The notes beneath the pieces are model-generated. The model ran no database searches. It was not told the DNA's origin and was given only the letters and a program-made list of their open reading frames with translations. A stretch of DNA of 64,000 nt, from the NCBI RefSeq assembly GCF_000027125.1, contig NC_017626.1. One strand, 5' to 3'. The position numbers and the translations under genes are program-made. Shown in pieces: positions 44,606 through 56,391 of the stretch. Within the stretch, counting starts at the first letter, position 1, and each line of letters starts with the position of its first letter. The stretch comes from Escherichia coli 042 (GTDB taxonomy: Bacteria > Pseudomonadota > Gammaproteobacteria > Enterobacterales > Enterobacteriaceae).

Positions 44606-44700
44606 GGAAGATCGTCGTCTCCGGTGAGGCGGCTGGACTTCAAATCCAGTTGGGGCCGCCAGCGGTCCCGGGCAGGTTCGACTCCTGTGATCTTCCGCCA
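44606..44700 (+). tRNA. selC: tRNA-Sec (selenocysteine, anticodon UCA)
   Basis: 95-nt ggaagatcgtcgtctccggtgaggcggctggacttcaaatccagttggggccgccagcggtcccgggcaggttcgactcctgtgatcttccgcca; long extra arm; anticodon loop cTTCAaa. Confidence 0.95.
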
Positions 44701-44702
44701 AA
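44680..44702. repeat. attL core (3' end of selC)
   Basis: gactcctgtgatcttccgccaaa, repeated exactly at 55733..55755. Confidence 0.8.
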
Positions 44703-44862
44703 CTTCATCCAGCCAGTTCCGAGATGATCCATAAAACCATTTATATTCAATATGATGAATAATCATCTTATCCGTAACAGTCCGAGATCGTCTCCCTAAA
44801 TCCGCGAAAAATATGTATAGTAATGTGTATAGATTTTTTATAAGTAGTTTTCAGTTATACAC

Positions 44863-46044
44863 ATGGCTCTCACCGATATACAGATCAAACGTGCAAAACC
44901 ACAAGACAAGCCATACACATTGAACGATGGACAAGGTCTGTCATTGCTTATCAATCCCGATGGCTCGAAAGGCTGGCGTTTCCGTTTCCGGTTTGCAGGG
45001 AAAGCGCGGTTAATGTCATTTGGCAGCTACGATTTAGTAAGCCTCGCAGAAGCACGTGAGAAGCGTGATATCGCCCGTAAGCAGGTTGCTAATGGCATTG
45101 ACCCGGTAGAGGAACGCAAAGCTTTAAGACTCGCCCAAAAGCTATCAACAGAAAATTCTTTCGAAGCAATATGTCGAGAATGGCATACCAACAAAGCTGA
45201 CCGCTGGACTGTGGCCTATCGAGAAGAAATCATTAAGACATTCGAGCAAGATGTCTTCCCGTTCATTGGTAAACGTCCTATCAGTGAAATCAAACCATTA
45301 GAACTGCTTGAAGTATTACGACGAATCGAAAAACGTGGAGCACTAGAGAAAACACGCAAGGTGCGTCAAAGATGCGGTGAGGTTTATCGCTATGCAATCA
45401 TAACTGGCCGTGCTGAGTACAATCCTGCACCTGATTTAGCTATCGCTCTGGCCGTTCCCAAGCAAAAACACCATCCATTTTTATCCGCTGAAGAGTTGCC
45501 TCATTTTATTCGAGATCTTGAAGCGTATACCGGTAGCATCATCACCAAAAATGCTACGAAGATAGTCATGCTGACTGGTGTAAGAACGCAGGAGATGCGC
45601 TTTGCTACGTGGGAAGAAGTAGACCTCGAAAAAGGTATATGGGAGATACCAGCGGAACGTATGAAAATGCGTAGACCTCACATTGTTCCTTTATCTACTC
45701 AGGTAGTTGACCTTTTCAAACAGCTCAAACCTATTACCGGCCATTACCCTTACATCTTTATTGGTAGGAATAACCGTAATAAACCAATCTCAAAAGAAAG
45801 TGTATCACAAGTAATTGAGTCACTCGGTTACAAAGGACGTGCTACCGGTCACGGTTTTAGACATACAATGTCGACAATTCTACATGAGCAGGGGTTTGAT
45901 AGTGCATGGATTGAGATGCAATTAGCACATGTGGACAAAAACAGTATTCGTGGGACATATAACCATGCCCAGTATCTGGAAGGCAGAAAAAAAATGATGA
46001 ATTGGTATGCTAATCATATCTTTAATATAGGGGTTCCTAAATGA
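44863..46044 (+). CDS. int: P4-type tyrosine integrase
   Basis: 393 aa MALTDIQIKRAKPQDKPYTLNDGQGLSLLINPDGSKGWRFRF; sits beside attL. Confidence 0.9.
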   Translation: MALTDIQIKRAKPQDKPYTLNDGQGLSLLINPDGSKGWRFRFRFAGKARLMSFGSYDLVSLAEAREKRDIARKQVANGIDPVEERKALRLAQKLSTENSFEAICREWHTNKADRWTVAYREEIIKTFEQDVFPFIGKRPISEIKPLELLEVLRRIEKRGALEKTRKVRQRCGEVYRYAIITGRAEYNPAPDLAIALAVPKQKHHPFLSAEELPHFIRDLEAYTGSIITKNATKIVMLTGVRTQEMRFATWEEVDLEKGIWEIPAERMKMRRPHIVPLSTQVVDLFKQLKPITGHYPYIFIGRNNRNKPISKESVSQVIESLGYKGRATGHGFRHTMSTILHEQGFDSAWIEMQLAHVDKNSIRGTYNHAQYLEGRKKMMNWYANHIFNIGVPK

Positions 46045-46179
46045 CAAACAATGTTCTTACCATACATAATCGCTTGTTTATCAACCAGTTACATTTCTAT
46101 AGAATGAATTTCACTTATATCAACTACAACGGTTGACATTTAAAAAATATTAACATTTAAAAAAAGTAGGAGCTACGCA

Positions 46180-47616
46180 ATGTGCATAGAATTAAAAAAG
46201 TTTTCAATTAAAAAATTATATGGCTATAAAGACATACATCTAATTTTCAATAAAAAAAGTACAATTATCATTGCAGAGAATGGTGCTGGCAAAACTACGC
46301 TAATCAATGCACTTAAATCCACCTTAAAAGGTGAGTTTGATGAACTAAGAAAAATCAAGTGTGAGAGTATTGATATAGAGTTTTCTGATCAAAAATTCAC
46401 ATTGAATATTGCAGCATTAAGTTATTCTGATTTTCTGAATAATGCATTGTTACCAACTAGATTTCGTGAAATCACGAAAAATCTTAATAATACACAAATT
46501 GAAGATGCATTAGCATTTCTAAGACATAAACCAGTGAAGGATGCCCGTCAGACTACATGGTACCGAAAAATGTATCATACAACTCCTTATAATTACATTG
46601 ATATCGACTCGACATTATCCGAAGTCAAAATCTTATTAAAAAATCATTATTCATCTCTTGAAAAACCTGATCTTTTCTCTGTAAATAAACCAGAACTGTC
46701 TAAAACCATCCATGCAATAGAGGAAATAAAACAGAAAACAAAAAATATTGAAATAATATATTTACCTACATACCGACGCATTGAAAAATCTACACTTCGT
46801 GATAAGTTTACTAGAGATGAAAATGAAAAATTCGTCTTTAGAGATGGAGAGATCGTCAGTATTCGCGAGGAAAGTGAAACTAACTTAAATATAGAGTTTG
46901 GTTTGTTTGATGTTGAATCAAAATTAAAAGATTTAAGCGCATCCATTGAGCGCCGTTCAAGTTTAGGCTATAGAAAGTTAAGTGCAACCATAATTGAAGA
47001 TATGATGACAGGAAAAGCCAGTGCCCCAACAAAACCTAAACTGCCATCTGTATCTGAATTATCAAGATTTTTAGGTAGGGTAGTTAATAAAGATAAGGAA
47101 AGTAATAAGAGGATAATTCAAGAAGTTACAAGCATCATGGAAAATAAAGATATGCTCGCATCAAATAATATGCTGAGTTATTTCCTATCTAAATTAAAAG
47201 CTGTCATCGACTCAACTAAAGAGCTCGAACTAAAAATAGAGAGCTTTGTTACCATTTGCAATAAATATCTACAGTTATCAGATGATTCAAAATCGCTAAA
47301 TTTTGACATTGAAACATTACAAGTTATTGTAAAAGACTTATTCACAAATAACCCCATTGAATTAGAAGATCTTTCCTCAGGCGAAAAACAAATAATTTCT
47401 TTGATGGCTCATATGTATCTTGACCATACTAAGAAAAAAATTGTTTTAATAGATGAACCAGAATTATCGCTCTCACTTGAATGGCAAGAGCATGTCCTCG
47501 TAGATATAGTGAATAGCCCTTCAGTTACTCAAATGCTTGCAATAACACATTCACCTTTTGTTTTTAATAATGAACTGAAATCCCAAGTAACATCTTTGAA
47601 AGTTATCAAGCATTGA
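46180..47616 (+). CDS. ABC-type ATPase (AAA_15/AAA_21-like), candidate AriA-like (PARIS) or AbiLi-like defense ATPase
   Basis: 478 aa; Walker A AENGAGKTTLINAL; Walker B/D-loop IVLIDEPELSLSLEW; H-loop-like AITHSP; AT-rich; SD gtaggag 8 nt upstream; in the P4 int-psu cargo slot. Confidence 0.7.
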   Translation: MCIELKKFSIKKLYGYKDIHLIFNKKSTIIIAENGAGKTTLINALKSTLKGEFDELRKIKCESIDIEFSDQKFTLNIAALSYSDFLNNALLPTRFREITKNLNNTQIEDALAFLRHKPVKDARQTTWYRKMYHTTPYNYIDIDSTLSEVKILLKNHYSSLEKPDLFSVNKPELSKTIHAIEEIKQKTKNIEIIYLPTYRRIEKSTLRDKFTRDENEKFVFRDGEIVSIREESETNLNIEFGLFDVESKLKDLSASIERRSSLGYRKLSATIIEDMMTGKASAPTKPKLPSVSELSRFLGRVVNKDKESNKRIIQEVTSIMENKDMLASNNMLSYFLSKLKAVIDSTKELELKIESFVTICNKYLQLSDDSKSLNFDIETLQVIVKDLFTNNPIELEDLSSGEKQIISLMAHMYLDHTKKKIVLIDEPELSLSLEWQEHVLVDIVNSPSVTQMLAITHSPFVFNNELKSQVTSLKVIKH

Positions 47617-47624
47617 GGATTAGA

Positions 47625-48551
47625 ATGGACGATCTTCGTTTTAATATGATGATGGATGCGATCAAAAAACCGTGTGTTTTGAGATTAAAGCTAATTAAAA
47701 ACAAAAAGGCAGGAAAGGCTTTATTTGTTTTCGAAGGTGACGATGACTATGATTTCTATCATCATGCTATAACTATTTCCGGTTTCGATAAAGAATATAC
47801 TCATATAAATGGGGCAGGAAAGAACCAATCTATTTCCCTTTATGAAGAATTATATAAAGAAAATAGTGATAATTTACAAAACACATATTTTTTTGTTGAT
47901 CAAGATTACTCTACCTTCTGTTACTCTAATAAAAACATAGTAACACTTCCATTTTATGCCATTGAGAACCCATTATCAGATGATAGAGTAATAAAACATT
48001 TTATAATCTCAACATTTAAACTTGACGAAAGGCATAGCAAAATTATAAATAGCGTTATGGGCTTTTATTCTAAGGCAAAAGCTAGCTTTTATTCTGAGAT
48101 AAAAAACATATCTATACAGCTGTATATGTCCAGAATACTTGGACTCGCGATAGAGTTTCCTTCAAACCATGAATTATTCGAAAAAATTGAAAAGGAAAAA
48201 GTCACCCTTAAAATAAATGAAATACCGGCAATTACTGATCGGTTAAAAAAAATAACAAAAGACGAAGAGAATTACTACAAAGTAATTTCCACTCTAGATA
48301 ATGACAAACTGACTAGAGGAAAGTATGTTTACTATTTTGTTAGCGAGTGGTTAATCCGCATAAAAAAATACATCAATTCAAGGATAGATAGTATAAATAA
48401 TGAAAGCGCCTTAAACTCTACCTCTTCAGTAGTGAATGAAAAAAAATTATCCAAACAACAATATGATCATACTGACCTGTCAATCGCAAGGCTTGTTCCT
48501 GCATGTATGAAAGTAAAAGAATTGGATGCTTTCTTAAAAAGGATTAATTAA
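47625..48551 (+). CDS. TOPRIM / DUF4435-like protein, candidate AriB-like (PARIS) or AbiLii-like effector
   Basis: ORF track starts at a TTG (47613); I place the start at the ATG 47625 with SD gagga 6-10 nt upstream. LFVFEGDDDYDFY and FFVDQDY fit TOPRIM Glu and DxD acidic motifs; AT-rich; separated from the upstream ATPase stop by 8 nt. Confidence 0.65.
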   Translation: MDDLRFNMMMDAIKKPCVLRLKLIKNKKAGKALFVFEGDDDYDFYHHAITISGFDKEYTHINGAGKNQSISLYEELYKENSDNLQNTYFFVDQDYSTFCYSNKNIVTLPFYAIENPLSDDRVIKHFIISTFKLDERHSKIINSVMGFYSKAKASFYSEIKNISIQLYMSRILGLAIEFPSNHELFEKIEKEKVTLKINEIPAITDRLKKITKDEENYYKVISTLDNDKLTRGKYVYYFVSEWLIRIKKYINSRIDSINNESALNSTSSVVNEKKLSKQQYDHTDLSIARLVPACMKVKELDAFLKRIN

Positions 48552-48570
48552 TAATAAAACACTGCGGGCG

Positions 48571-48589
48571 GTGCTTTCCCCGCCTCGCC
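48571..48589 (-). other. cos site (P2/P4 19-nt cohesive end)
   Basis: Reverse complement of gtgctttccccgcctcgcc is ggcgaggcggggaaagcac, the P2/P4 cohesive end as recalled; an adjacent hairpin ccgcccg-ctttgc-cgggcgg plus tttt (48589..48612) may act as a terminator. Confidence 0.7.
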
Positions 48590-48754
48590 CGCCCGCTTTG
48601 CCGGGCGGTTTTAATGCAGTTGCGCTGACACGCTCAGGCCGCGTCGGGCGCGGCGTGAGCTGCAGAAAATGAGTCAGGAAAACGCATGCAAAGCCATGCA
48701 CCTTATCGATGCATGGCTTTTTTCAGTAAAAACAGGCGGATTTTTCGGGGAGTT

Positions 48755-49327
48755 TTACACAGACTGACGTGATGCCAGTTCTGCACTTTTACGCGAAAAA
48801 ATCATGTTCTGCGCAGGGGTGAATTTTTCACGGCTGTCATCCACCGAAGCCGCGTCAGGCCTGAATCCGATGGTCGTTAAAATGTCGCTATCCTGTGCGG
48901 AATAATTAATTTTTTCCCCCTTCGCAAGCCAGGACAGAAGGGCTTCACGCAGGACATCTGTGGCACGCTGTATGGCACAGTTTCGGGCAATGGCCGTCAG
49001 CTCACTGTAGCCCATCAGCTCCGGTGCCAGTGCGGCCGCCAGTGCTGTGCCGTGCTGCTGCATAAAATCATTCAGCCGCTCGCGGATGCTGATGTGCTGA
49101 ACGGCTTCATGCGAACGAACATAACGACCGGCGGCCTGATTCACCTGCCATTTTCTGACTTCGATAATATTGCGTAATTCGTCCAGGCGACTGACGTTTC
49201 TGCCTTCCCCGGACAGAAGCCGCAGATATTCCTGTTCGGCTGCCGCCAGTTCATTTTTGCGCTGAAGCCATGCCGCTTTGTTATTCTGGCAGACCTCAAA
49301 AGCCTGCTGTAATGACATTGTGGTCAC
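48755..49327 (-). CDS. psu: Polarity suppression protein Psu (capsid decoration / Rho antagonist)
   Basis: 190 aa; MTTMSLQQAFEVCQNNKAAWLQRKNELAAAEQEYLRLL closely matches P4 Psu as recalled. Confidence 0.85.
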   Translation of the reverse strand: MTTMSLQQAFEVCQNNKAAWLQRKNELAAAEQEYLRLLSGEGRNVSRLDELRNIIEVRKWQVNQAAGRYVRSHEAVQHISIRERLNDFMQQHGTALAAALAPELMGYSELTAIARNCAIQRATDVLREALLSWLAKGEKINYSAQDSDILTTIGFRPDAASVDDSREKFTPAQNMIFSRKSAELASRQSV

Positions 49328-49341
49328 ACCCCGTCCCCTGA

Positions 49342-49587
49342 TTAATGGTTGAATGGTGAGCTGTAACAGCCTTTAACTTTTCGGACAACAGCCGGTGCTG
49401 TGCTTACCGGTGCTGGTTTTTCCTCCGTGACCGGAGAACGAATCACGGCACAAATTGACTCATGCGTTTTAAATGTCGCCGAACAGTAAATATTCTGGCA
49501 CTGCAGATAACTTTCTTTGACATTGTCACTCACATACCGGCTGGTGCGGGTATGCGCTGAATGACGACAGAAAGGGCAGCGCATCAT
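49342..49587 (-). CDS. delta: Ogr/Delta-family zinc-finger late transcription activator
   Basis: 81 aa; CPFCRHSAHTRTSRYVSDNVKESYLQCQNIYCSATF (C4 zinc finger); single-domain form. Confidence 0.8.
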   Translation of the reverse strand: MMRCPFCRHSAHTRTSRYVSDNVKESYLQCQNIYCSATFKTHESICAVIRSPVTEEKPAPVSTAPAVVRKVKGCYSSPFNH

Positions 49588-50318
49588 GACAGCAGTCCTC
49601 TGGCCTTAAGCTCTGCTCCCTGCTGGTCTATTTTGTCCTGCCACACCTTGCGCTGTGCCGGTGTGCCTGCCACCTCATAATCCATGTGCGGGAGTGTTGC
49701 CGCTGACAGTCCGGTCAGCCGGAGAACCGGCTCGCCGGTGAGGCTGATTTGCATCTGTTTTATTTTCTGTTCCAGCGATGATTTCACCTGCTGCATGACA
49801 GCCTTTTCCGGCGCGACGTAGCCCTGATGGCCGGTGGTGTTGGCGAGCGGATTTTCCTGTACCAGGATGCTCAGATGCATTGCCCGGACAAGCGCCTCAC
49901 AGGTTTCATTCAGGGCGTGTTCCAGCTCATGCTCTGCATACAGACTCAGCAGGTGATGATGTGCCTTCCGGTAGGCGGTGGCCGTGCTGTCACACGCCCC
50001 TTTCAGGCGTTCACGTTCAAAATTCAGCACCACGGCCAGATTGTCATATTCCTGTACCAGCTCCCGGCGTGCCACGCGCTCAATGTGGCGCTGTTTCAGC
50101 TCGTCGCTCAGGACACCACCGGCTGCACGAAAGGCCGTGCGCCAGTCGTCAGCGTCGTTTCCGTCGGCCTGCGCCAGCGCATTTTTTTCCTGCTCTGCCC
50201 GTTCAATGGCCGTGACGGTCTCATCCATCAGGCGGGCGTTCTCAAGATGGGCGGCTCTGGCCTTTTCCAGTTGTGCCAGCGCGGGTTGCAGATATTCAGG
50301 GATGGTGTTGTCAGACAT
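49584..50318 (-). CDS. sid: Capsid size determination protein Sid (external scaffold)
   Basis: ORF 49584..50384; start placed at MSDNTIPEYLQPALAQ (aggag SD 5 nt upstream), giving 244 aa, the length I recall for P4 Sid; position upstream of delta and psu. Confidence 0.7.
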   Translation of the reverse strand: MSDNTIPEYLQPALAQLEKARAAHLENARLMDETVTAIERAEQEKNALAQADGNDADDWRTAFRAAGGVLSDELKQRHIERVARRELVQEYDNLAVVLNFERERLKGACDSTATAYRKAHHHLLSLYAEHELEHALNETCEALVRAMHLSILVQENPLANTTGHQGYVAPEKAVMQQVKSSLEQKIKQMQISLTGEPVLRLTGLSAATLPHMDYEVAGTPAQRKVWQDKIDQQGAELKARGLLS

Positions 50319-50487
50319 TTTCCGGCTCCTCGTCACTTCAGGTTGAGAAAATTGTGACGTACACCGGACAACAACACGACGCATTGCAGATGTGCCAGCC
50401 CTGACACAGGAGACTCATCCTCAGACCGGCAAGCCAGGAAAAGGTCGCAGGAAAAACCGGCTTACTGTTTGTTTTTTTTATATTTTA

Positions 50488-50592
50488 CTGTTCACCTCTG
50501 TTCACCATAAGAAAAAAGATAAGTAATACAGTAAGTTAAAGGGTGAACAATCGCAGTAATGACTGTTCACCGTCTGTTCACCACTGTTCACC
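50488..50592. repeat. Iteron cluster (TGTTCACC / GGTGAACA), alpha-binding ori- or crr-type repeat in the sid-vis intergenic region
   Basis: At least six TGTTCACC octamers in both orientations within about 105 bp; the P4 type I iteron is TGTTCACC as recalled; which of ori or crr this set represents is not resolved. Confidence 0.6.
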
Positions 50593-50870
50593 CGTTGATG
50601 GGCTTTTTGTGCTGTTTATTACTTTTTATTTTTATTAATTCACTGAAATAAATAAGAAAAAACAATTTGTATTTCACTATAATTTTTTCCAGCTCCTTCC
50701 AGAGCGTTTTAAAGCTATCTGGCGCTGATGTACAAAAAATACACAGCCATTGTAAGGCTGCCGGAACAAATCCCCCCTGTTGCGTCTGCCGAAAATATTC
50801 ACAAAATAAAGCGCTACCCGAAGCCGGACGGACTTATCCGGTGCTGTATGGACATTAACGAGGTAGCCCG

Positions 50871-51137
50871 ATGCAAGCTGTTTTTTCTTCCCCGTCTCCC
50901 GCCCCTGTGACGCCACTGATGCCGCTGCCGGACATCACGCAGGAGCGTTTTTTACGTCTGCCGGAAGTGATGCACCTGTGCGGCCTGTCACGCTCGACCA
51001 TCTACGAACTCATCCGTAAGGGGGAATTTCCGCCGCAGGTGAGTCTTGGCGGTAAAAATGTGGCCTGGCTGCACTCTGAAGTCACCGCATGGATGGCCGG
51101 GCGCATTGCCGGACGCAAACGGGGGTACGACGCATGA
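50871..51137 (+). CDS. vis: Vis / AlpA-family regulator (P4 orf88-like)
   Basis: 88 aa; [50 protein letters not shown] (AlpA HTH). Confidence 0.75.
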
Positions 51138-51379
51138 TGATGCCCGCTCTGCAAAAAGTCCCTTTTTCTGGCTTGCCTTTTTCCGGCATTTGCGGATATA
51201 GTTTTTCCGCTGCCGCAAAATCGGCAGCCGGGCGTAGGAACCCGTGTAACTCGAAGGCGACATATGACGCGCCATGCGTCTTTTTTTGTGTCGCAATCAA
51301 CGCCACAGAGCGCCAGATTATGGTGTGGCGTGTGGTTTGCCGTGCAGGTATGATCCTGTTCGCAATCGCATGTTATGCC

Positions 51380-51505
51380 ACTGAGTCAATGGTAGCTCAG
51401 GCGGGGCAGCCTCCGGGCTGGCCGGTATTCTTCGAGGCCGGTATTCCTACCCCCGTCTGGGCTATCGCCATCGAGCGTAGGAACTCCGGCGATAGCAGTT
51501 ATTTG
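51380..51505 (+). ncRNA. Candidate CI/C4-type immunity RNA
   Basis: Homologous to 10600..10730 with compensatory stem changes; preceded by a hairpin plus T-run (gacgcgccatgcgtc ttttttt at about 51264-51292). Confidence 0.45.
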
Positions 51506-51526
51506 CTACTCGAAGGAGGCTGCCTT

Positions 51527-51724
51527 ATGGCTACAACCCTTACCCCCTCACACCCTGAATTTGTCTTTGTGTTTGCGGCTGTCCGTCGCGCAGACCGTCA
51601 TCCCCGTATCTGCATGCTTCGCACCGTCGCCGGTGATGAACGCAGCGCCCGCCGTTCCCTTGTCCGTGACTATGTGCTCTCCCTTGCTGCCCGTCTGCCG
51701 GTGGTGGAGGTGTCCCGTGCGTAA
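51527..51724 (+). CDS. Icd/Kil-like small protein
   Basis: 66 aa [50 protein letters not shown]...; gaaggagg SD; homologous to the island-1 ORF 10759..10953. Confidence 0.5.
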
Positions 51725-52004
51725 TAAAAAAGCCCCTCAGACCGTCTCAGCGCGTCATGACGCCCGTGAACACCTCAGCATTGAGGCTTACCATAAGCTC
51801 AACCGCGCCAGCGCCGTATCCCAGTTTGTTGGGGGTGATTTGATTCACCGTGAACTCTCCGGCCTGCATCAGCTCTACATTCCGCATATTTTCAGCTACC
51901 TGAATGAAGATATTGATTTTGTGCTGAATGAGCTGAAAGCCAAAGGCCTGTGCCGCGATTTTCTCGCCCAGCAGAAAGACCGGGGAGACAGGACGCATGT
52001 TTGA
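51717..52004 (+). CDS. Hypothetical protein (occupies the position of P4 epsilon)
   Basis: ORF track frame 51561..52004; proposed GTG start at 51717 overlapping the icd-like stop; start uncertain. Confidence 0.35.
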
Positions 52005-52452
52005 TTTTCCCCAGCCCGGTGAGATTTACCGTTCTGCCGGTTTTCCCGATGTGGCCGTGGTCGGCATTCTGGAAGACGGTATTCCGTGGGAAATGCCGTA
52101 CCGCTGCCCGGACATTGTCTGGAACCCGTACCGCCGTAAATTCAGTATCCTTGTGCGTATCCTCGCTGACGGGCGCACCACAGACATCCCGCTGGGGCGT
52201 TTTCTGCGGGAATTTACCTGTGACCGTCCTGACCTGTTCAAACGCAGCCCCGTAAACCGGCATGCGGTACTGAAAGAAATGGCCGGAGACCCGGAATTAC
52301 AGAAATGGCGGGTGAAATATCTGGATATTTACCCGCAGGACCCTGTTCCGGCCAGCCGGGCGGCACCGGTGGCGCGGGAATGGCGGGAAATTCCCCGCAC
52401 GGAGCCTGACCCGGAAATCACACCGGATAACAGTTACCGCAATTATCTGTAA
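51997..52452 (+). CDS. Hypothetical protein (P4 orf151-like by position and length)
   Basis: 151-aa ORF overlapping the upstream stop; the P4 left operon has an ORF of this size, as recalled. Confidence 0.5.
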   Translation: MFDFPQPGEIYRSAGFPDVAVVGILEDGIPWEMPYRCPDIVWNPYRRKFSILVRILADGRTTDIPLGRFLREFTCDRPDLFKRSPVNRHAVLKEMAGDPELQKWRVKYLDIYPQDPVPASRAAPVAREWREIPRTEPDPEITPDNSYRNYL

Positions 52453-52587
52453 TTAAAAAACGACACCCGAAAAATTAAATGTGCGTATTCGCGCAGGGAT
52501 ACGCACGTCTTCAGGAGACGCAGATATGCCTTATCAGTTAATGCAACCGGCACAGAATGCAGTCATCTGTCACAGGGAGGAAAGCAA

Positions 52588-52908
52588 ATGAAAACACCCT
52601 TACCGCCCGTCTTACGCGCTGCCCTTTACCGTCGCGCTGTCGCCTGTGCCTGGCTGACCGTGTGCGAACGTCAGCACCGCTACCCGCATCTCACCCTTGA
52701 ATCACTGGAGGCGGCCATCGCCGCTGAGCTGGAAGGCTTTTATCTGCGCCAGCACGGTGAGGAAAAAGGGCGTCAGATAGCCTGTGCCCTGCTGGAAGAT
52801 TTAATGGAATCCGGCCCCCTGAAGGCCGCGCCGTCGCTGTCCTTTCTCGGGCTGGTTGTGATGGATGAACTCTGTGCCCGTCACATAAAAGCGCCGGTAC
52901 TGCACTGA
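52588..52908 (+). CDS. Hypothetical protein
   Basis: 106-aa ORF immediately upstream of alpha. Confidence 0.45.
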
Positions 52909-52922
52909 AGGAGAACAACACC

Positions 52923-55256
52923 ATGAAAATGAACGTAACCGCCACCGTCAGCCATGCGCTCGGCCACTGGCCGCGTATTCTCCCGGCGCTGGGGATTCAG
53001 GTGCTGAAAAACCGTCATCAGCCCTGTCCGGTCTGTGGCGGGAGTGACCGCTTCCGTTTTGATGACAGGGAGGGGCGCGGCACCTGGTACTGCAATCAGT
53101 GTGGTGCCGGTGACGGCCTGAAACTGGTTGAAAAGGTGTTTGGTGTTTCCCCGTCCGACGCGGCCGCAAAGGTGGCTGCCGTGACCGGCAGCCTGCCACC
53201 GGCTGACCCGGCAGTGACGACCGCCGCCGTTGCTGAAACAGACGCTGCCCGGAAGAACGCCGCCGCACTGGCACAAACCCTGATGGCGAAAACCCGTCCC
53301 GGAACCGGTAACGCCTACCTGACCCGCAAGGGCTTTCCCGGCCGGGAATGCCGGATGCTGACCGGCACACACAGAGCCGGTGGCGTGAGCTGGCGCGCCG
53401 GTGACCTTGTGGTGCCACTGTATGACGACAGCGGCGAACTGGTTAACCTTCAGTTAATCAGTGCTGACGGCCGTAAGCGCACCCTGAAAGGCGGACAGGT
53501 CAGGGGCACCTGTCACACCCTTGAAGGACAGAATCAGGCCGGAAAACGTCTGTGGATAGCGGAGGGATACGCGACCGCACTTACCGTACATCACCTGACC
53601 GGTGAAACGGTGATGGTGGCGCTTTCTTCCGTGAACCTCCTTTCTCTGGCCAGCCTTGCCCGGCAGAAGCATCCGGCCTGTCAGATTGTCCTTGCCGCAG
53701 ACCGTGACCTCAGCGGTGACGGCCAGAAAAAAGCCGCCGCAGCCGCAGATGCGTGTGAGGGCGTTGTTGCCCTGCCGCCGGTCTTCGGTGACTGGAATGA
53801 TGCCTTCACGCAGTACGGCGGGGAGGCCACCCGTAAGGCCATTTACGATGCCATCCGGCCACCGGCTGAAAGCCCGTTCGACACCATGAGCGAAGCAGAG
53901 TTTTCCGCCATGAGTACCAGCGAAAAGGCCATGCGTATCTATGAGCATTACGGCGAGGCGCTCGCGGTCGATGCCAACGGCCAGCTTCTGTCCCGCTATG
54001 AAAATGGTGTCTGGAAGGTGCTGCCGCCACAGGACTTTGCCCGGGATGTGGCCGGGCTGTTTCAGCGGCTGCGTGCGCCGTTCTCCTCCGGGAAGGTGGC
54101 CTCCGTGGTGGACACCCTGAAGCTGATTATTCCGCAGCAGGAAGCCCCCTCCCGCCGCCTGATTGGCTTTCGTAACGGCGTGCTCGACACGCAGAACGGT
54201 ACGTTCCACCCGCACAGTCCGTCACACTGGATGCGCACCCTGTGCGATGTGGATTTCACCCCGCCGGTGGACGGTGAAACGCTGGAAACCCACGCTCCCG
54301 CGTTCTGGCGCTGGCTTGACCGTGCTGCCGGTGGTCGTGCGGAAAAACGCGACGTGATTCTGGCCGCACTGTTTATGGTGCTCGCAAACCGCTACGACTG
54401 GCAGCTCTTTCTGGAGGTGACCGGTCCCGGCGGCAGCGGCAAAAGTATCATGGCCGAAATAGCCACCCTGCTGGCCGGGGAGGATAACGCCACATCGGCC
54501 ACCATTGAGACGCTGGAATCCCCGCGTGAACGTGCCGCGTTAACTGGCTTCTCACTGATACGCCTGCCGGACCAGGAAAAATGGAGCGGCGACGGTGCCG
54601 GACTCAAGGCCATCACCGGCGGCGATGCGGTGTCCGTTGACCCGAAATACCGGGATGCATACTCCACGCATATCCCGGCGGTGATTCGGGCCGTGAACAA
54701 TAACCCGATGCGCTTCACCGACCGCAGCGGCGGCGTGTCACGCCGGCGGGTGATTATTCACTTCCCGGAACAGATAGCCCCGCAGGAGCGCGACCCGCAG
54801 CTTAAGGACAAAATCACCCGCGAGCTGGCGGTCATCGTGCGTCACCTGATGCAGAAGTTCAGCGACCCGATGCTCGCCCGGTCACTGCTTCAGTCCCAGC
54901 AGAACTCAGACGAGGCGCTGAACATCAAACGGGATGCCGACCCGACGTTTGATTTTATCGGCTATCTGGAAACCCTGCCGCAGACCAGCGGCATGTATAT
55001 GGGGAACGCCAGTATCATCCCGCGCAATTACCGTAAATACCTCTATCACGCCTATCTGGCCTACATGGAGGCAAACGGCTACCGGAACGTACTCAGTCTG
55101 AAAATGTTCGGGCTGGGGCTGCCGGTGATGCTGAAGGAATACGGACTGAATTACGAGAAACGCCATACCAAACAGGGGATACAGACCAACCTGACGCTGA
55201 AAGAGGAAAGCTACGGCGACTGGCTGCCAAAATGTGACGACCCTGCAACAACCTGA
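52923..55256 (+). CDS. alpha: P4 alpha primase-helicase
   Basis: 777 aa; CPVCGGSDRFRFDDREGRGTWYCNQCGAGDGL zinc motif; TOPRIM (IAEGYATALT ... LAADRD); P-loop GPGGSGKS; length equals P4 alpha as recalled. Confidence 0.9.
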   Translation: MKMNVTATVSHALGHWPRILPALGIQVLKNRHQPCPVCGGSDRFRFDDREGRGTWYCNQCGAGDGLKLVEKVFGVSPSDAAAKVAAVTGSLPPADPAVTTAAVAETDAARKNAAALAQTLMAKTRPGTGNAYLTRKGFPGRECRMLTGTHRAGGVSWRAGDLVVPLYDDSGELVNLQLISADGRKRTLKGGQVRGTCHTLEGQNQAGKRLWIAEGYATALTVHHLTGETVMVALSSVNLLSLASLARQKHPACQIVLAADRDLSGDGQKKAAAAADACEGVVALPPVFGDWNDAFTQYGGEATRKAIYDAIRPPAESPFDTMSEAEFSAMSTSEKAMRIYEHYGEALAVDANGQLLSRYENGVWKVLPPQDFARDVAGLFQRLRAPFSSGKVASVVDTLKLIIPQQEAPSRRLIGFRNGVLDTQNGTFHPHSPSHWMRTLCDVDFTPPVDGETLETHAPAFWRWLDRAAGGRAEKRDVILAALFMVLANRYDWQLFLEVTGPGGSGKSIMAEIATLLAGEDNATSATIETLESPRERAALTGFSLIRLPDQEKWSGDGAGLKAITGGDAVSVDPKYRDAYSTHIPAVIRAVNNNPMRFTDRSGGVSRRRVIIHFPEQIAPQERDPQLKDKITRELAVIVRHLMQKFSDPMLARSLLQSQQNSDEALNIKRDADPTFDFIGYLETLPQTSGMYMGNASIIPRNYRKYLYHAYLAYMEANGYRNVLSLKMFGLGLPVMLKEYGLNYEKRHTKQGIQTNLTLKEESYGDWLPKCDDPATT

Positions 55257-55305
55257 CCCACCTGACCGGCATCTGCCGGTCTTTTTTTATCCCGACATCC
55301 CCCGA

Positions 55306-55580
55306 AGGTGAACAATCCAGTGTTCACCCTTCACCGTATATTCACCCGTTATCACACTGAAATTAAAAGAAAAAAACGAAAGGTGAACAGTGTGAACAAT
55401 CAAATCAAAAAAACTTTTTTTCTTCCTGTGTGATTTTCAGTGCGGAGGATTAATCACCTGTATGAGTCACACCGGCAGAATGCCGTAGGTGAAGAATCGA
55501 ATGTTCACCCTTCACCCATTATTCACCACCTATCCAACTGAAATAAAAGGAGAAAACAGAAAGGGGAACAGTGTGAACAG
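55306..55580. repeat. Two direct copies of a 95-bp iteron-containing unit (crr- or ori-like) downstream of alpha
   Basis: Unit aggtgaaCaatccaGtgttcacccttcacc...aaaggtgaacagtgtgaacaa at 55306..55400, repeated with minor changes at 55486..55580; each unit has several TGTTCACC/GGTGAACA octamers. Confidence 0.65.
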
Positions 55581-55732
55581 TTCTTCCGAAAAAAAATTTT
55601 TTTCCTGAGTTAACGTGCGTGAAGATGCGTGTAAAAATTAATCGATAGATATTATATGTATAAGGATGTGTATAAATGAATTAGAGCTGATAAATATAAA
55701 CGATTGGAATCAAATGGTTATATATCAATTTA

Positions 55733-55755
55733 GACTCCTGTGATCTTCCGCCAAA
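55733..55755. repeat. attR (duplicate of the selC 3' end)
   Basis: gactcctgtgatcttccgccaaa, identical to 44680..44702. Confidence 0.8.
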
Positions 55756-56391
55756 ATTCCTCTTCTGACGTTCTCCAACCCCTTGTAATACTGTCAATCC
55801 AGATATTTTCTACTGCTCAATATTCAATCGGCTTCAGGAATACCTGATCAAAGGTTTTGTGATGGACGATGAGCGACTGAAGAATCCGCCTGTCGGTTCT
55901 TCTGTCCTCGAACGCATCCGCGATATTCGCGCCAGCATGCGCCGTGTTTATTTGCAGGTGATTTGCCCCCCTGCTGACTCTCAGCCAACTGTATCGCCAT
56001 TAAGGTGAAGATGTTGTTTTACACGCCCCAGAACACCCTTTTTTTATACGACGATTCTATTCCTTTAACCGCTGACGAAAAAAACTGACCTATAAACTTC
56101 ACCAATAATCAGACTGCCATCAAGATTAATGTGTTCATTTAATATATCAAATAAACTTGTTTTATTTTTACTATCAAAAATAGCTCATTGCCTTACTATA
56201 ATTAATATATAAATTCGGTGATTAATTCTTAACATGCTTTTGCTAATAATCTCAATTGCTGGCCCTATAATATTGCGCTAGCATTGTTTTCTGGTTGTAT
56301 CAGCGATACTCAAAAATTCTTAATATAATACTCATTCGACTGGTACTTATTTGTAACTCAGTTATATTTTGTCGCCCGGTGATTCAGAAGA

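Follow-up and report, generated by a model that had tools for sequence, protein, structure and literature searches.

Two AT-rich genes in the int-cos interval of a P4-like satellite

The window, that is, the whole stretch of 64,000 nt that was analysed, contains a P4-like satellite delimited by att repeats at tRNA-Sec (Table 1). As described in the first-pass annotation of this DNA, the interval between int and cos/psu of this element is occupied by two closely spaced, co-oriented genes, here designated ariA and ariB, which are separated by 8 nt. The P4 context proposed at that stage is present in all its parts: in addition to the tRNA-Sec, int, psu, the alpha primase gene and the att repeats, delta and sid follow psu on the minus strand, and both the C4/CI RNA and isrK can be recognised. 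A 19-mer located 19 nt past the ariB stop codon, which we take to be the P2/P4 cos end, is an exact match with 0 occurrences expected by chance. The AT-richness for which the gene pair had been singled out is also evident, positions 46045-48570 having a GC content of 0.309, compared with 0.553 in the remainder of the satellite and 0.487 in the window as a whole. The locus neatly illustrates a documented rule: in P4-like satellites, the slot between int and cos accommodates antiphage cargo that is interchangeable.

Table 1. Features of the P4-like satellite and of its int-cos cargo slot (window coordinates).
Feature	Position	Strand	Description	Basis
tRNA-Sec	44606-44700		satellite integration site	
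P4-like satellite	44677..55762	.		attL/attR direct repeat, tRNA-Sec, gene order
attL	44677-44709		3' end of tRNA-Sec	direct repeat, 33 nt at 91%
int	44863..46044	+	P4-type tyrosine integrase, left edge of cargo slot	
Region upstream of ariA	46045..46179	+	native	sequence, repeat search, consensus scan
ariA	46180..47616	+	478 aa, 55.1 kDa, ABC/Rad50-type ATPase; putative sensor/scaffold subunit of PARIS-1, by analogy	ORF, Pfam, PADLOC
ariB Shine-Dalgarno (GAGGA)	47615..47619	+	overlaps ariA stop codon (TGA, 47614-47616)	sequence
ariB	47625..48551	+	308 aa, 36.0 kDa, DUF4435/TOPRIM nuclease; putative effector subunit of PARIS-1, by analogy	ORF, Pfam, PADLOC, AF2
cos	48571..48589	-	presumed P2/P4 cohesive-end sequence GGCGAGGCGGGGAAAGCAC, right edge of cargo slot	exact match
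Terminator-like hairpin	48589-48608	+	beside cos	
psu	48755..49327	-	polarity suppression protein, P4 core gene beyond cos	
Alpha primase	52923-55256		P4 gene of satellite	
attR	55730-55762		direct repeat partner of attL, 11,053 bp spacing	

The second open reading frame is open from a TTG codon at 47613, which would yield a product of 312 aa. The ATG at 47625 is the likely start of ariB, because it is preceded by a GAGGA Shine-Dalgarno sequence that overlaps the ariA stop codon, and it is also the start used in RefSeq and by Rousset et al. (PMC9122126). Given this overlap, the two genes form a single operon with coupled translation.

The gene pair encodes an ABC ATPase and a DUF4435 protein of the PARIS family

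Every motif quoted in the first-pass annotation is found in the two translations. Protein 1 presents a Walker A motif (GAGKTT, residues 35-40), a Walker B/D-loop segment (VLIDEPELSLSLEW, from residue 422) and an H-loop (ITHSP, 455-459), together with an ABC signature (LSSGEKQ, 398-404), and its key residues K38 (Walker A), D425/E426 (Walker B) and H457 (H-loop) are invariant across 36 aligned homologues. Protein 2 presents the acidic motifs FEGDDD (36-41) and VDQD (91-94), as well as a conserved RGKY (231-234); among its acidic residues (E37, D40/D41, D92, D94 and E114), all are invariant in an alignment of 25 homologues except E37, which is nearly so. The pairing of an ABC ATPase with a DUF4435/TOPRIM protein that had been read from these motifs is recovered by Pfam, with matches to AAA_15 (57.7 bits, 2e-15) and AAA_21 (46.2 bits, 8e-12) in protein 1 and to DUF4435 (62.4 bits, 7e-17) in protein 2. 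PADLOC identifies protein 1 as AriA (1.4e-32) and protein 2 as AriB (1.5e-15), the latter being the sole model matched by protein 2 at E ≤ 1. In NCBIfam, AriA yields sub-threshold PtuA and ABC-transporter matches only (PtuA, 44 bits versus a cutoff of 500), and no model matches AriB.

The choice between PARIS, AbiL and a new split-OLD variant had initially been left to profile searches, and these fix the family as PARIS. Rousset et al. (PMC9122126) define PARIS by a score of at least 32 bits for AAA_15 or at least 27 for AAA_21, plus at least 27 for DUF4435, and the pair exceeds all three values when scored with a Pfam release newer than theirs. The gene arrangement is that of PARIS, whose two components may alternatively be fused, with the ATPase followed by an adjacent, co-oriented DUF4435 gene, and the catalytic residues (Walker A Lys, Walker B Glu and the TOPRIM acidic cluster) are all intact. 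The AF2 model of protein 2 (pLDDT 90.2) shows the AriB fold, consisting of a TOPRIM core within DUF4435 and a helical dimerisation part.

Structural comparison leads to the same assignment. When the AriA family profile was searched against the PDB, the best match was AriA (8ux9_B, 3.8e-22), ahead of PtuA (3.6e-13), Rad50 (2.9e-7) and OLD (7.2e-6). AriA chains account for each of the 14 best PDB matches returned by Foldseek for the AF2 model of AriA (E 2.5e-15 to 1.3e-11), with TM-scores, normalised to target, of 0.57-0.67. Among defence ABC ATPases, protein 1 is hence nearer to AriA than to PtuA, GajA, OLD or Rad50. For the AriB model, matches at E ≤ 0.001 were obtained only for the AriB chains 8ux9_A (3.6e-6) and 8v46_D (1.3e-5), each aligned at full length with probability 1.00 but with a global TM-score of only 0.49. 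A phmmer search of AriB against PDB sequences found nothing, and a 25-member AriB family profile returned unrelated proteins at chance level but no AriB chain; since sequence searches of solved structures gave no match, the assignment of AriB derives entirely from the Pfam and PADLOC profiles and from the fold comparison.

An ABC/Rad50-type ATPase and a TOPRIM nuclease occur together, as in PARIS-1, in several other phage defence systems, including AbiL (AbiLi/AbiLii, from Lactococcus), RloAB, class 1/2 OLD and Gabija GajA. An AbiL-type system, made up of an AbiLi ATPase and an AbiLii OLD-type TOPRIM nuclease, would follow the same domain logic, with an ABC ATPase preceding a TOPRIM protein, and a 2026 review places AbiL with PARIS among ATPase plus TOPRIM systems. 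The same review, however, finds no significant sequence similarity between AbiLii and AriB. Neither AbiLii nor RloB is a DUF4435 protein or matches protein 2, which carries DUF4435, has AriB as its only PADLOC match and presents significant folds in the PDB for AriB chains only. With its AbiLii-type second component missing, an AbiL system is very improbable here, and the initial description of the pair as PARIS-like or AbiL-like stands for PARIS, on the strength of PADLOC, the Pfam thresholds and the fold, and falls for AbiL.

It is more improbable still, to the point of being negligible, that a fused OLD/Gabija-type system, or a PtuA-type system of the Septu/retron kind, has been misread as two genes. 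PtuA and GajA models do match the N- and C-terminal lobes of the ATPase (E ~1e-10 to 2e-17), and Septu or retron-associated PtuA is the next-closest ATPase after AriA itself by both sequence and fold, its chains being the next-best PDB matches. The GajA models in PADLOC, however, cover only ~50 N-terminal residues of AriA (E ~1e-10), and AriA outperforms PtuA in the profile comparison given above as well as in the fold comparison (2.5e-15 versus 1.3e-9). Whereas OLD and GajA have both domains fused in one polypeptide, in the window a stop codon parts the two genes and is followed by a separate Shine-Dalgarno sequence and ATG. The partner encoded downstream is a DUF4435/TOPRIM protein, instead of the HNH nuclease (PtuB) that accompanies PtuA or the UvrD-type helicase GajB. 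A new split-OLD variant is likewise unsupported. The family is therefore settled as PARIS, to the exclusion of AbiL, OLD/Gabija and Septu.

Identity with published PARIS-1

PARIS-1 was described by Rousset et al. (2022, Cell Host Microbe 30:740; PMC9122126) on plasmids pFR84/pFD237, with E. coli 'O42' (GCA_014462355) as its source. The comparison with the window covers four elements. Table S2A prints the pFR84 insert, which begins within the 3' end of int, up to nt 399, and this portion is identical to positions 45952-46350 (399/399 nt); the reverse primer site falls within psu, at 48857-48876; the published AriB is identical to that of the window over its entire length (308/308); and the published protein 1 is identical to AriA over the 84-aa stretch printed in the supplement. 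In addition, the RefSeq accessions of the window ariA and ariB, WP_000334847 and WP_000342408, are both included in the hotspot table of that study. Judged by these alignments, the window ariAB is the cloned PARIS-1 over everything that can be compared, with no difference detected. We thus conclude with high confidence that the locus is the PARIS-1 allele of PARIS, carried as cargo of the int-cos hotspot in a P4-like satellite integrated at selC.

The two-gene pair is therefore not new, having been published and experimentally tested as PARIS-1, and its annotation adds nothing new to a cargo that publications and defence-system databases already contain. The initial proposal of a satellite-borne antiphage pair agrees with the published phenotype, since PARIS-1 provides broad antiphage protection when induced (Ptet with aTc), and no defence is seen from a plasmid with the native promoter (PMC9122126). 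Only for PARIS-2 have both genes and the catalytic residues been demonstrated to be necessary. A full-text literature search for 'PARIS-1' together with 'AriB' returned the 2022 paper alone and no later work.

Distance from PARIS-2 and possible specificity of PARIS-1

The mechanism of PARIS has been worked out only for PARIS-2, the AriA-AriB system of E. coli B185 (PDB 8UX9, 8V45-8V49; Burman et al. 2024 and Deep et al. 2024, Nature), and involves an AriA6:AriB3 complex, the ATP-dependent, trigger-induced release of AriB, and tRNA cleavage (PMC11464382, PMC12409363). PARIS-1 resembles PARIS-2 in its two-gene operon, its location in the P4 hotspot, its Pfam families and its ATPase motifs, and the same cos 19-mer is found in the PARIS-2 insert text of Table S2A in Rousset et al. 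(PMC9122126). Protein sizes are 478 versus 464 aa for AriA and 308 versus ~306 aa for AriB, and the B185 chains are the best PDB fold matches of both PARIS-1 models. When paired by motif order, K38/E426 of PARIS-1 AriA correspond to K39/E393 of B185, and the TOPRIM acidic residues occur in a common order, E37/D41/D92/D94/E114 in PARIS-1 and E26/D30/D88/E90/E122 in B185 (PMC11464382).

By analogy with B185, a hexamer of AriA would serve as a scaffold that keeps AriB inactive. AriA would bind a phage protein (Ocr in the case of B185) in an ATP-dependent manner, upon which AriB would be freed from AriA and would dimerise. The resulting dimer would cut host tRNA in the anticodon stem-loop, using two metal ions, and the ensuing halt in translation would abort the infection. 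In B185, the cut in tRNA-Lys(UUU) falls between residues 40 and 41.

The two alleles are nonetheless far apart, with a structure-based identity of just 14-16% for AriA and 13-15% for AriB. The third acidic motif is DxD in PARIS-1 AriB and DxE in B185, and the PARIS-1 helix that follows E37 reads DDDYDFYHH, so that the AriA-contacting arginines of B185, R28 and R31, appear to be absent when the proteins are paired by motif order. In the AF2 model of AriA, segments 162-171 and 199-239 are of low confidence, and residues 196-241, with 9 K/R versus 11 D/E, have no net positive charge, unlike the positively charged AriA pore loops of B185 (PMC11464382). Given this distance, the trigger, complex stoichiometry and RNA target of PARIS-1 may therefore differ from those of B185.

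It is accordingly quite conceivable, at slightly less than an even chance, that PARIS-1 is a PARIS member that departs from PARIS-2 in its details, responding to a trigger other than Ocr and cutting tRNA or other RNA distinct from tRNA-Lys/Thr/Asn. Together with the low identity and the features of the AriA segments described above, this reading is favoured by the defence profiles of PARIS-1 and PARIS-2, reported as 'different but overlapping' (PMC9122126), and by the division of PARIS into 11 clades, with AriA pore residues poorly conserved between them and different triggers proposed (Burman et al., PMC11464382). PARIS-1 nonetheless keeps a conserved catalytic core and operon, and a divergent specificity would refine the PARIS explanation rather than replace it. 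More tentatively, we propose that the specificity of the PARIS-1 clade is unlike that of B185, such that its AriA may detect another phage protein, which need not be a DNA mimic with anti-restriction function, its AriB may cut another set of tRNAs, and its expression from the satellite may stay silent until a signal that was missing from the plasmid assay is received. A divergent trigger, tRNA set or silencing signal for PARIS-1 is not addressed in the literature searched. As the PARIS mechanism has been solved for one allele only, and a very distant one, the trigger, tRNA target and native regulation of the PARIS-1 clade could reveal how widely the B185 model applies.

Native expression signals and conservation of the cargo

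The native region upstream of ariA, which is included in the pFR84 insert, contains a Shine-Dalgarno sequence (AGGAG, 46168-46172), a TTGACA hexamer (46133-46138) and a 15-nt tandem repeat (46133-46147 and 46150-46164), and promoter-like hexamers lie on the 5' side of ariA at 46041-46070 and 46078-46105. A sigma-70 consensus scan of the cargo identified 16 sites, against 12.7 ± 4.3 expected in shuffled AT-rich sequence. As this count is not above chance, no promoter can be assigned within the cargo. Late-gene control of ariA by P4 Delta or P2 Ogr is also unsupported: the TGT-N12-ACA site, of which there are two copies in the sid/late-promoter region, is absent upstream of ariA, where only an N13 variant occurs (46075).

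Conservation of the gene pair extends beyond E. coli. In Burkholderia, Proteus and Yersinia, relatives of ariA (40-48% identity in AriA) have a DUF4435 gene directly downstream and sit inside P2-like phages or satellite-like elements, and across these three relatives the identity of AriA and AriB falls in parallel (48/38, 44/31 and 40/25%). Searches yielded 33 clusters for the AriB family and more than 5000 for AriA. We attribute this asymmetry to search sensitivity, because AriB diverges faster and all three relatives retain the DUF4435 gene; pairing of AriA with other effectors was rejected on the same 3/3 observation.

The expression signals bear on the alternative that the genes are silent or decaying cargo, with a native promoter that drives too little expression for any defence role in the natural host. 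[quoted passage not shown] A panel of eight phages, however, could miss native activity that is directed at further phages or requires different conditions, and PARIS-1 does defend when induced (PMC9122126). Both reading frames are intact, each is preceded by a strong Shine-Dalgarno sequence, the catalytic residues are invariant, and the AriB cluster of the window represents 116 sequences from 662 contigs. The cargo is also 99.9-100% identical, and 99.7-100% when its flanks are included, in five complete genomes of different origin (VR50, ST2350, DLI.6n, YZ_2_2 and one further isolate). Silent or decaying cargo is consequently an unlikely explanation.

As a separate observation, the window contains an island of 20 kb that is absent from VR50 and breaks collinearity with that genome.

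Family assignment of the cargo genes

The first-pass annotation had read the cargo of the P4-like satellite as an AT-rich gene pair encoding an ABC ATPase and a DUF4435/TOPRIM protein with antiphage function. The positions of both ORFs and of their motifs agree with this reading, as does the cargo GC content, 30.9% versus 55.3% in the remainder of the satellite. The two ORFs, ariA and ariB, share one orientation. AriA harbors a Walker A motif (GAGKTT, residues 35-40), an ABC signature (LSSGEKQ, 398-404), a Walker B/D-loop (VLIDEPELSLSLEW, starting at residue 422) and an H-loop (ITHSP, 455-459), and AriB presents FEGDDD (36-41), VDQD (91-94), AIEN (112-115) and RGKY (231-234) motifs. The ariB reading frame is already open at TTG 47613; ATG 47625 is favoured as the likely start because a GAGGA Shine-Dalgarno sequence overlapping the ariA stop codon precedes it, and is also the start in RefSeq and in the published clone. 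Catalytic residues are invariant among homologues of both proteins, and the two-gene operon is intact.

Positions of the main features in the window
Feature	Position	Strand	Description
Island genes	within 5947-26051		tyrosine integrase, AntA/AntB antirepressor, ash-family protein
Island genes	within 5947-26051		918-aa TOPRIM+DUF927 primase, DUF2824 protein
Island genes	within 5947-26051		P22-type DNA ejection/injection proteins, PerC-family regulator
Island genes	within 5947-26051		Doc toxin and unannotated 337-aa neighbour
tRNA-Sec	44606-44700		
Direct repeat	44677-44709 and 55730-55762		33 nt of tRNA 3' end, bounding the satellite
int	44863-46044		
ariA upstream region	46045-46179		strong Shine-Dalgarno, TTGACA, tandem repeat
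ariA	46180-47616	+	ORF, 478 aa
ariB	47625-48551	+	ORF, 308 aa from likely ATG start 47625
cos	48571-48589	-	exact 19-nt sequence, 0 expected by chance
psu, delta, sid	after cos	-	
a1b1 target	51196-51248		Rfam
isrK	51209-51286		Rfam, 72 bits
C4 antisense RNA	51385-51472		Rfam, 74 bits
alpha primase	52923-55256		
120-nt direct repeats	55302-55421 and 55483-55602		two, just 3' of alpha primase gene

The choice among PARIS, AbiL and split-OLD had been left to profile searches, and these returned significant matches to the AAA_15/AAA_21, DUF4435, AriA and AriB models. The published rule for two-gene PARIS systems specifies adjacent genes with AAA_15 of at least 32 bits or AAA_21 of at least 27 bits, plus DUF4435 of at least 27 bits (Rousset et al. 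2022, PMC9122126); AriA scored 57.7 and 46.2 bits for the two AAA models and AriB 62.4 bits for DUF4435, above every threshold. PADLOC identified the first protein as AriA (1.4e-32) and matched the second, at E<=1, to AriB alone (1.5e-15). Against solved structures, the first protein retrieved AriA at 1.6e-13 as a single query and, as a 36-member family profile, at 3.8e-22, with PtuA behind at 3.6e-13; the second yielded no match by sequence with either type of query. The sole significant PDB matches of the AriB AlphaFold model (pLDDT 90.2) were the AriB chains 8ux9_A (E 3.6e-6) and 8v46_D (1.3e-5), with probability 1.00, full-length alignment, 13-15% identity and a TM-score of 0.49. For the AriA model (pLDDT 77.4), the 14 best PDB matches were all AriA chains (E 2.5e-15 to 1.3e-11), retron PtuA coming next. 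AbiL was rejected because the second protein is a DUF4435 protein without an AbiLii match, OLD and GajA because the ATPase and TOPRIM domains lie in separate genes, and Septu/PtuAB because the partner of the ATPase is not an HNH nuclease. The Pfam, PADLOC and structure matches thus fix the family as PARIS.

Identity with PARIS-1

The locus is the published, experimentally tested PARIS-1 system. Among the P4 hotspot contents, Table S1 of Rousset et al. 2022 (PMC9122126) lists 'AAA_15/AAA_21 + DUF4435, WP_000334847 + WP_000342408', which are the RefSeq accessions of ariA and ariB in strain VR50, whose cargo is 100% identical to that of the window. Table S2A of the same study describes plasmid pFR84 as 'PARIS-1', source 'Escherichia coli O42', GCA_014462355; the 399 nt of insert given there are identical to window 45952-46350, and the annealing portion of the reverse primer corresponds to 48857-48876. 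AriB is identical to the printed PARIS-1 protein 2 (308/308), and AriA to protein 1 over the 84-aa stretch printed. PARIS-1 was described as a 'distant homolog' of the E. coli B185 system that gave no activity from its natural promoter and, when induced under Ptet, protected against 'a large range of phages', with a defence profile 'different but overlapping' with that of the B185 system (PMC9122126). A full-text literature search found no later papers on PARIS-1. Since the system is already published and tested, the locus is not novel, and its remaining interest lies in its clade-specific trigger, target and regulation.

Relatives and proposed mechanism

Among 5426 complete E. coli genomes, 5 carry exactly this cargo, and the AriB 90% cluster comprises 116 sequences on 662 contigs. 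Relatives at 55-86% identity were found in Klebsiella, Enterobacter, Proteus, Serratia, Providencia, Morganella, Aeromonas and Rahnella. In Burkholderia, Proteus and Yersinia, AriA homologues sharing 40-48% identity are each followed immediately by a DUF4435 gene. They reside either in P2-like phages (in the gap between the replication and portal genes, or adjoining genes for portal and terminase) or alongside primases of the D5 type. The two proteins have drifted apart in step (48/38, 44/31 and 40/25% identity for AriA/AriB), consistent with co-evolution as described by Burman et al. (PMC11464382).

We infer the mechanism from the B185 system (PMC11464382, PMC12409363): AriA hexamers would keep AriB inactive until AriA binds a phage trigger (Ocr for B185) in an ATP-dependent manner, whereupon AriB would be freed, dimerise and cut tRNA-Lys as well as tRNA-Thr and tRNA-Asn through two-metal TOPRIM catalysis, aborting translation and infection. 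The order of TOPRIM acidic residues is alike in PARIS-1 (E37/D41/D92/D94/E114) and B185 (E26/D30/D88/E90/E122), equivalence being assigned by motif order rather than superposition. The mechanism may nonetheless transfer incompletely, since the PARIS-1 proteins are only 13-16% identical to those of B185; AriA pore residues are poorly conserved over 11 clades, suggesting clade-specific triggers (Burman et al., PMC11464382); AriA 199-239, a low-confidence model segment, carries no net positive charge; and, judging from motifs, the AriB helix after E37 appears to lack the AriA-contacting arginines of B185.

Satellite context

The 11-kb P4-like satellite is inserted at tRNA-Sec, and its order (int, ariA-ariB, cos, psu/delta/sid on the minus strand, immunity region, icd-like gene, alpha primase) bears out the first-pass P4 assignment with cargo between int and psu. 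The pair therefore occupies the int-cos slot, the P4 defence hotspot of Rousset et al. 2022 (PMC9122126). Rfam recognised the P4 immunity RNAs (C4/CI RNA, isrK and a1b1 target) within 51196-51472, so the immunity region looks intact. The 120-nt repeats are 78% identical, start 181 nt apart and carry four TGTTCACC iterons (55307, 55321 and 55382 in the first; 55502 in the second); a further iteron cluster lies at 50489-50592. These regions (55302-55602; 50489-50592) presumably correspond to P4 crr and ori. Abutting cos, 38 nt past the ariB stop, is a T-tailed, GC-rich hairpin (CCGCCCGCTTTGCCGGGCGG TTTT, 48589-48608); the stretch holding it is kept at about 89-95% in ~1870 E. coli genomes, which makes it part of the P4 backbone and not of the cargo. 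In the corresponding region of VR50 (21832-21960 of the VR50 locus; window ~55830-55960), just beyond attR, the RefSeq annotation has a 129-nt fragment of a rhuM pseudogene, possibly left over from a previous selC island.

Upstream region of ariA

Upstream of ariA, a poor -10 hexamer (TTTAAA) comes 17 nt after TTGACA. In a scan against shuffles, promoter-like sites were not above shuffled frequency, and no Delta/Ogr-type TGT-N12-ACA site was found upstream of ariA. These observations are compatible with the reported inactivity of the native promoter, though they are no proof of it. Just 5' of the ribosome-binding site of ariA, a 15-nt tandem repeat (TTGACATTTAAAAAA / TTAACATTTAAAAAA, 46133-46164, 17 nt apart) could act as an operator or a weak promoter, and may be relevant to that silence.

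A second island in the window

Between yicC and dinD lies a 20.1-kb island (5947-26051) that VR50 lacks at the same site. Of 5426 complete E. coli genomes, 32 carry it at 99.7-99.9% identity. It resembles a second integrated satellite or a defective prophage.
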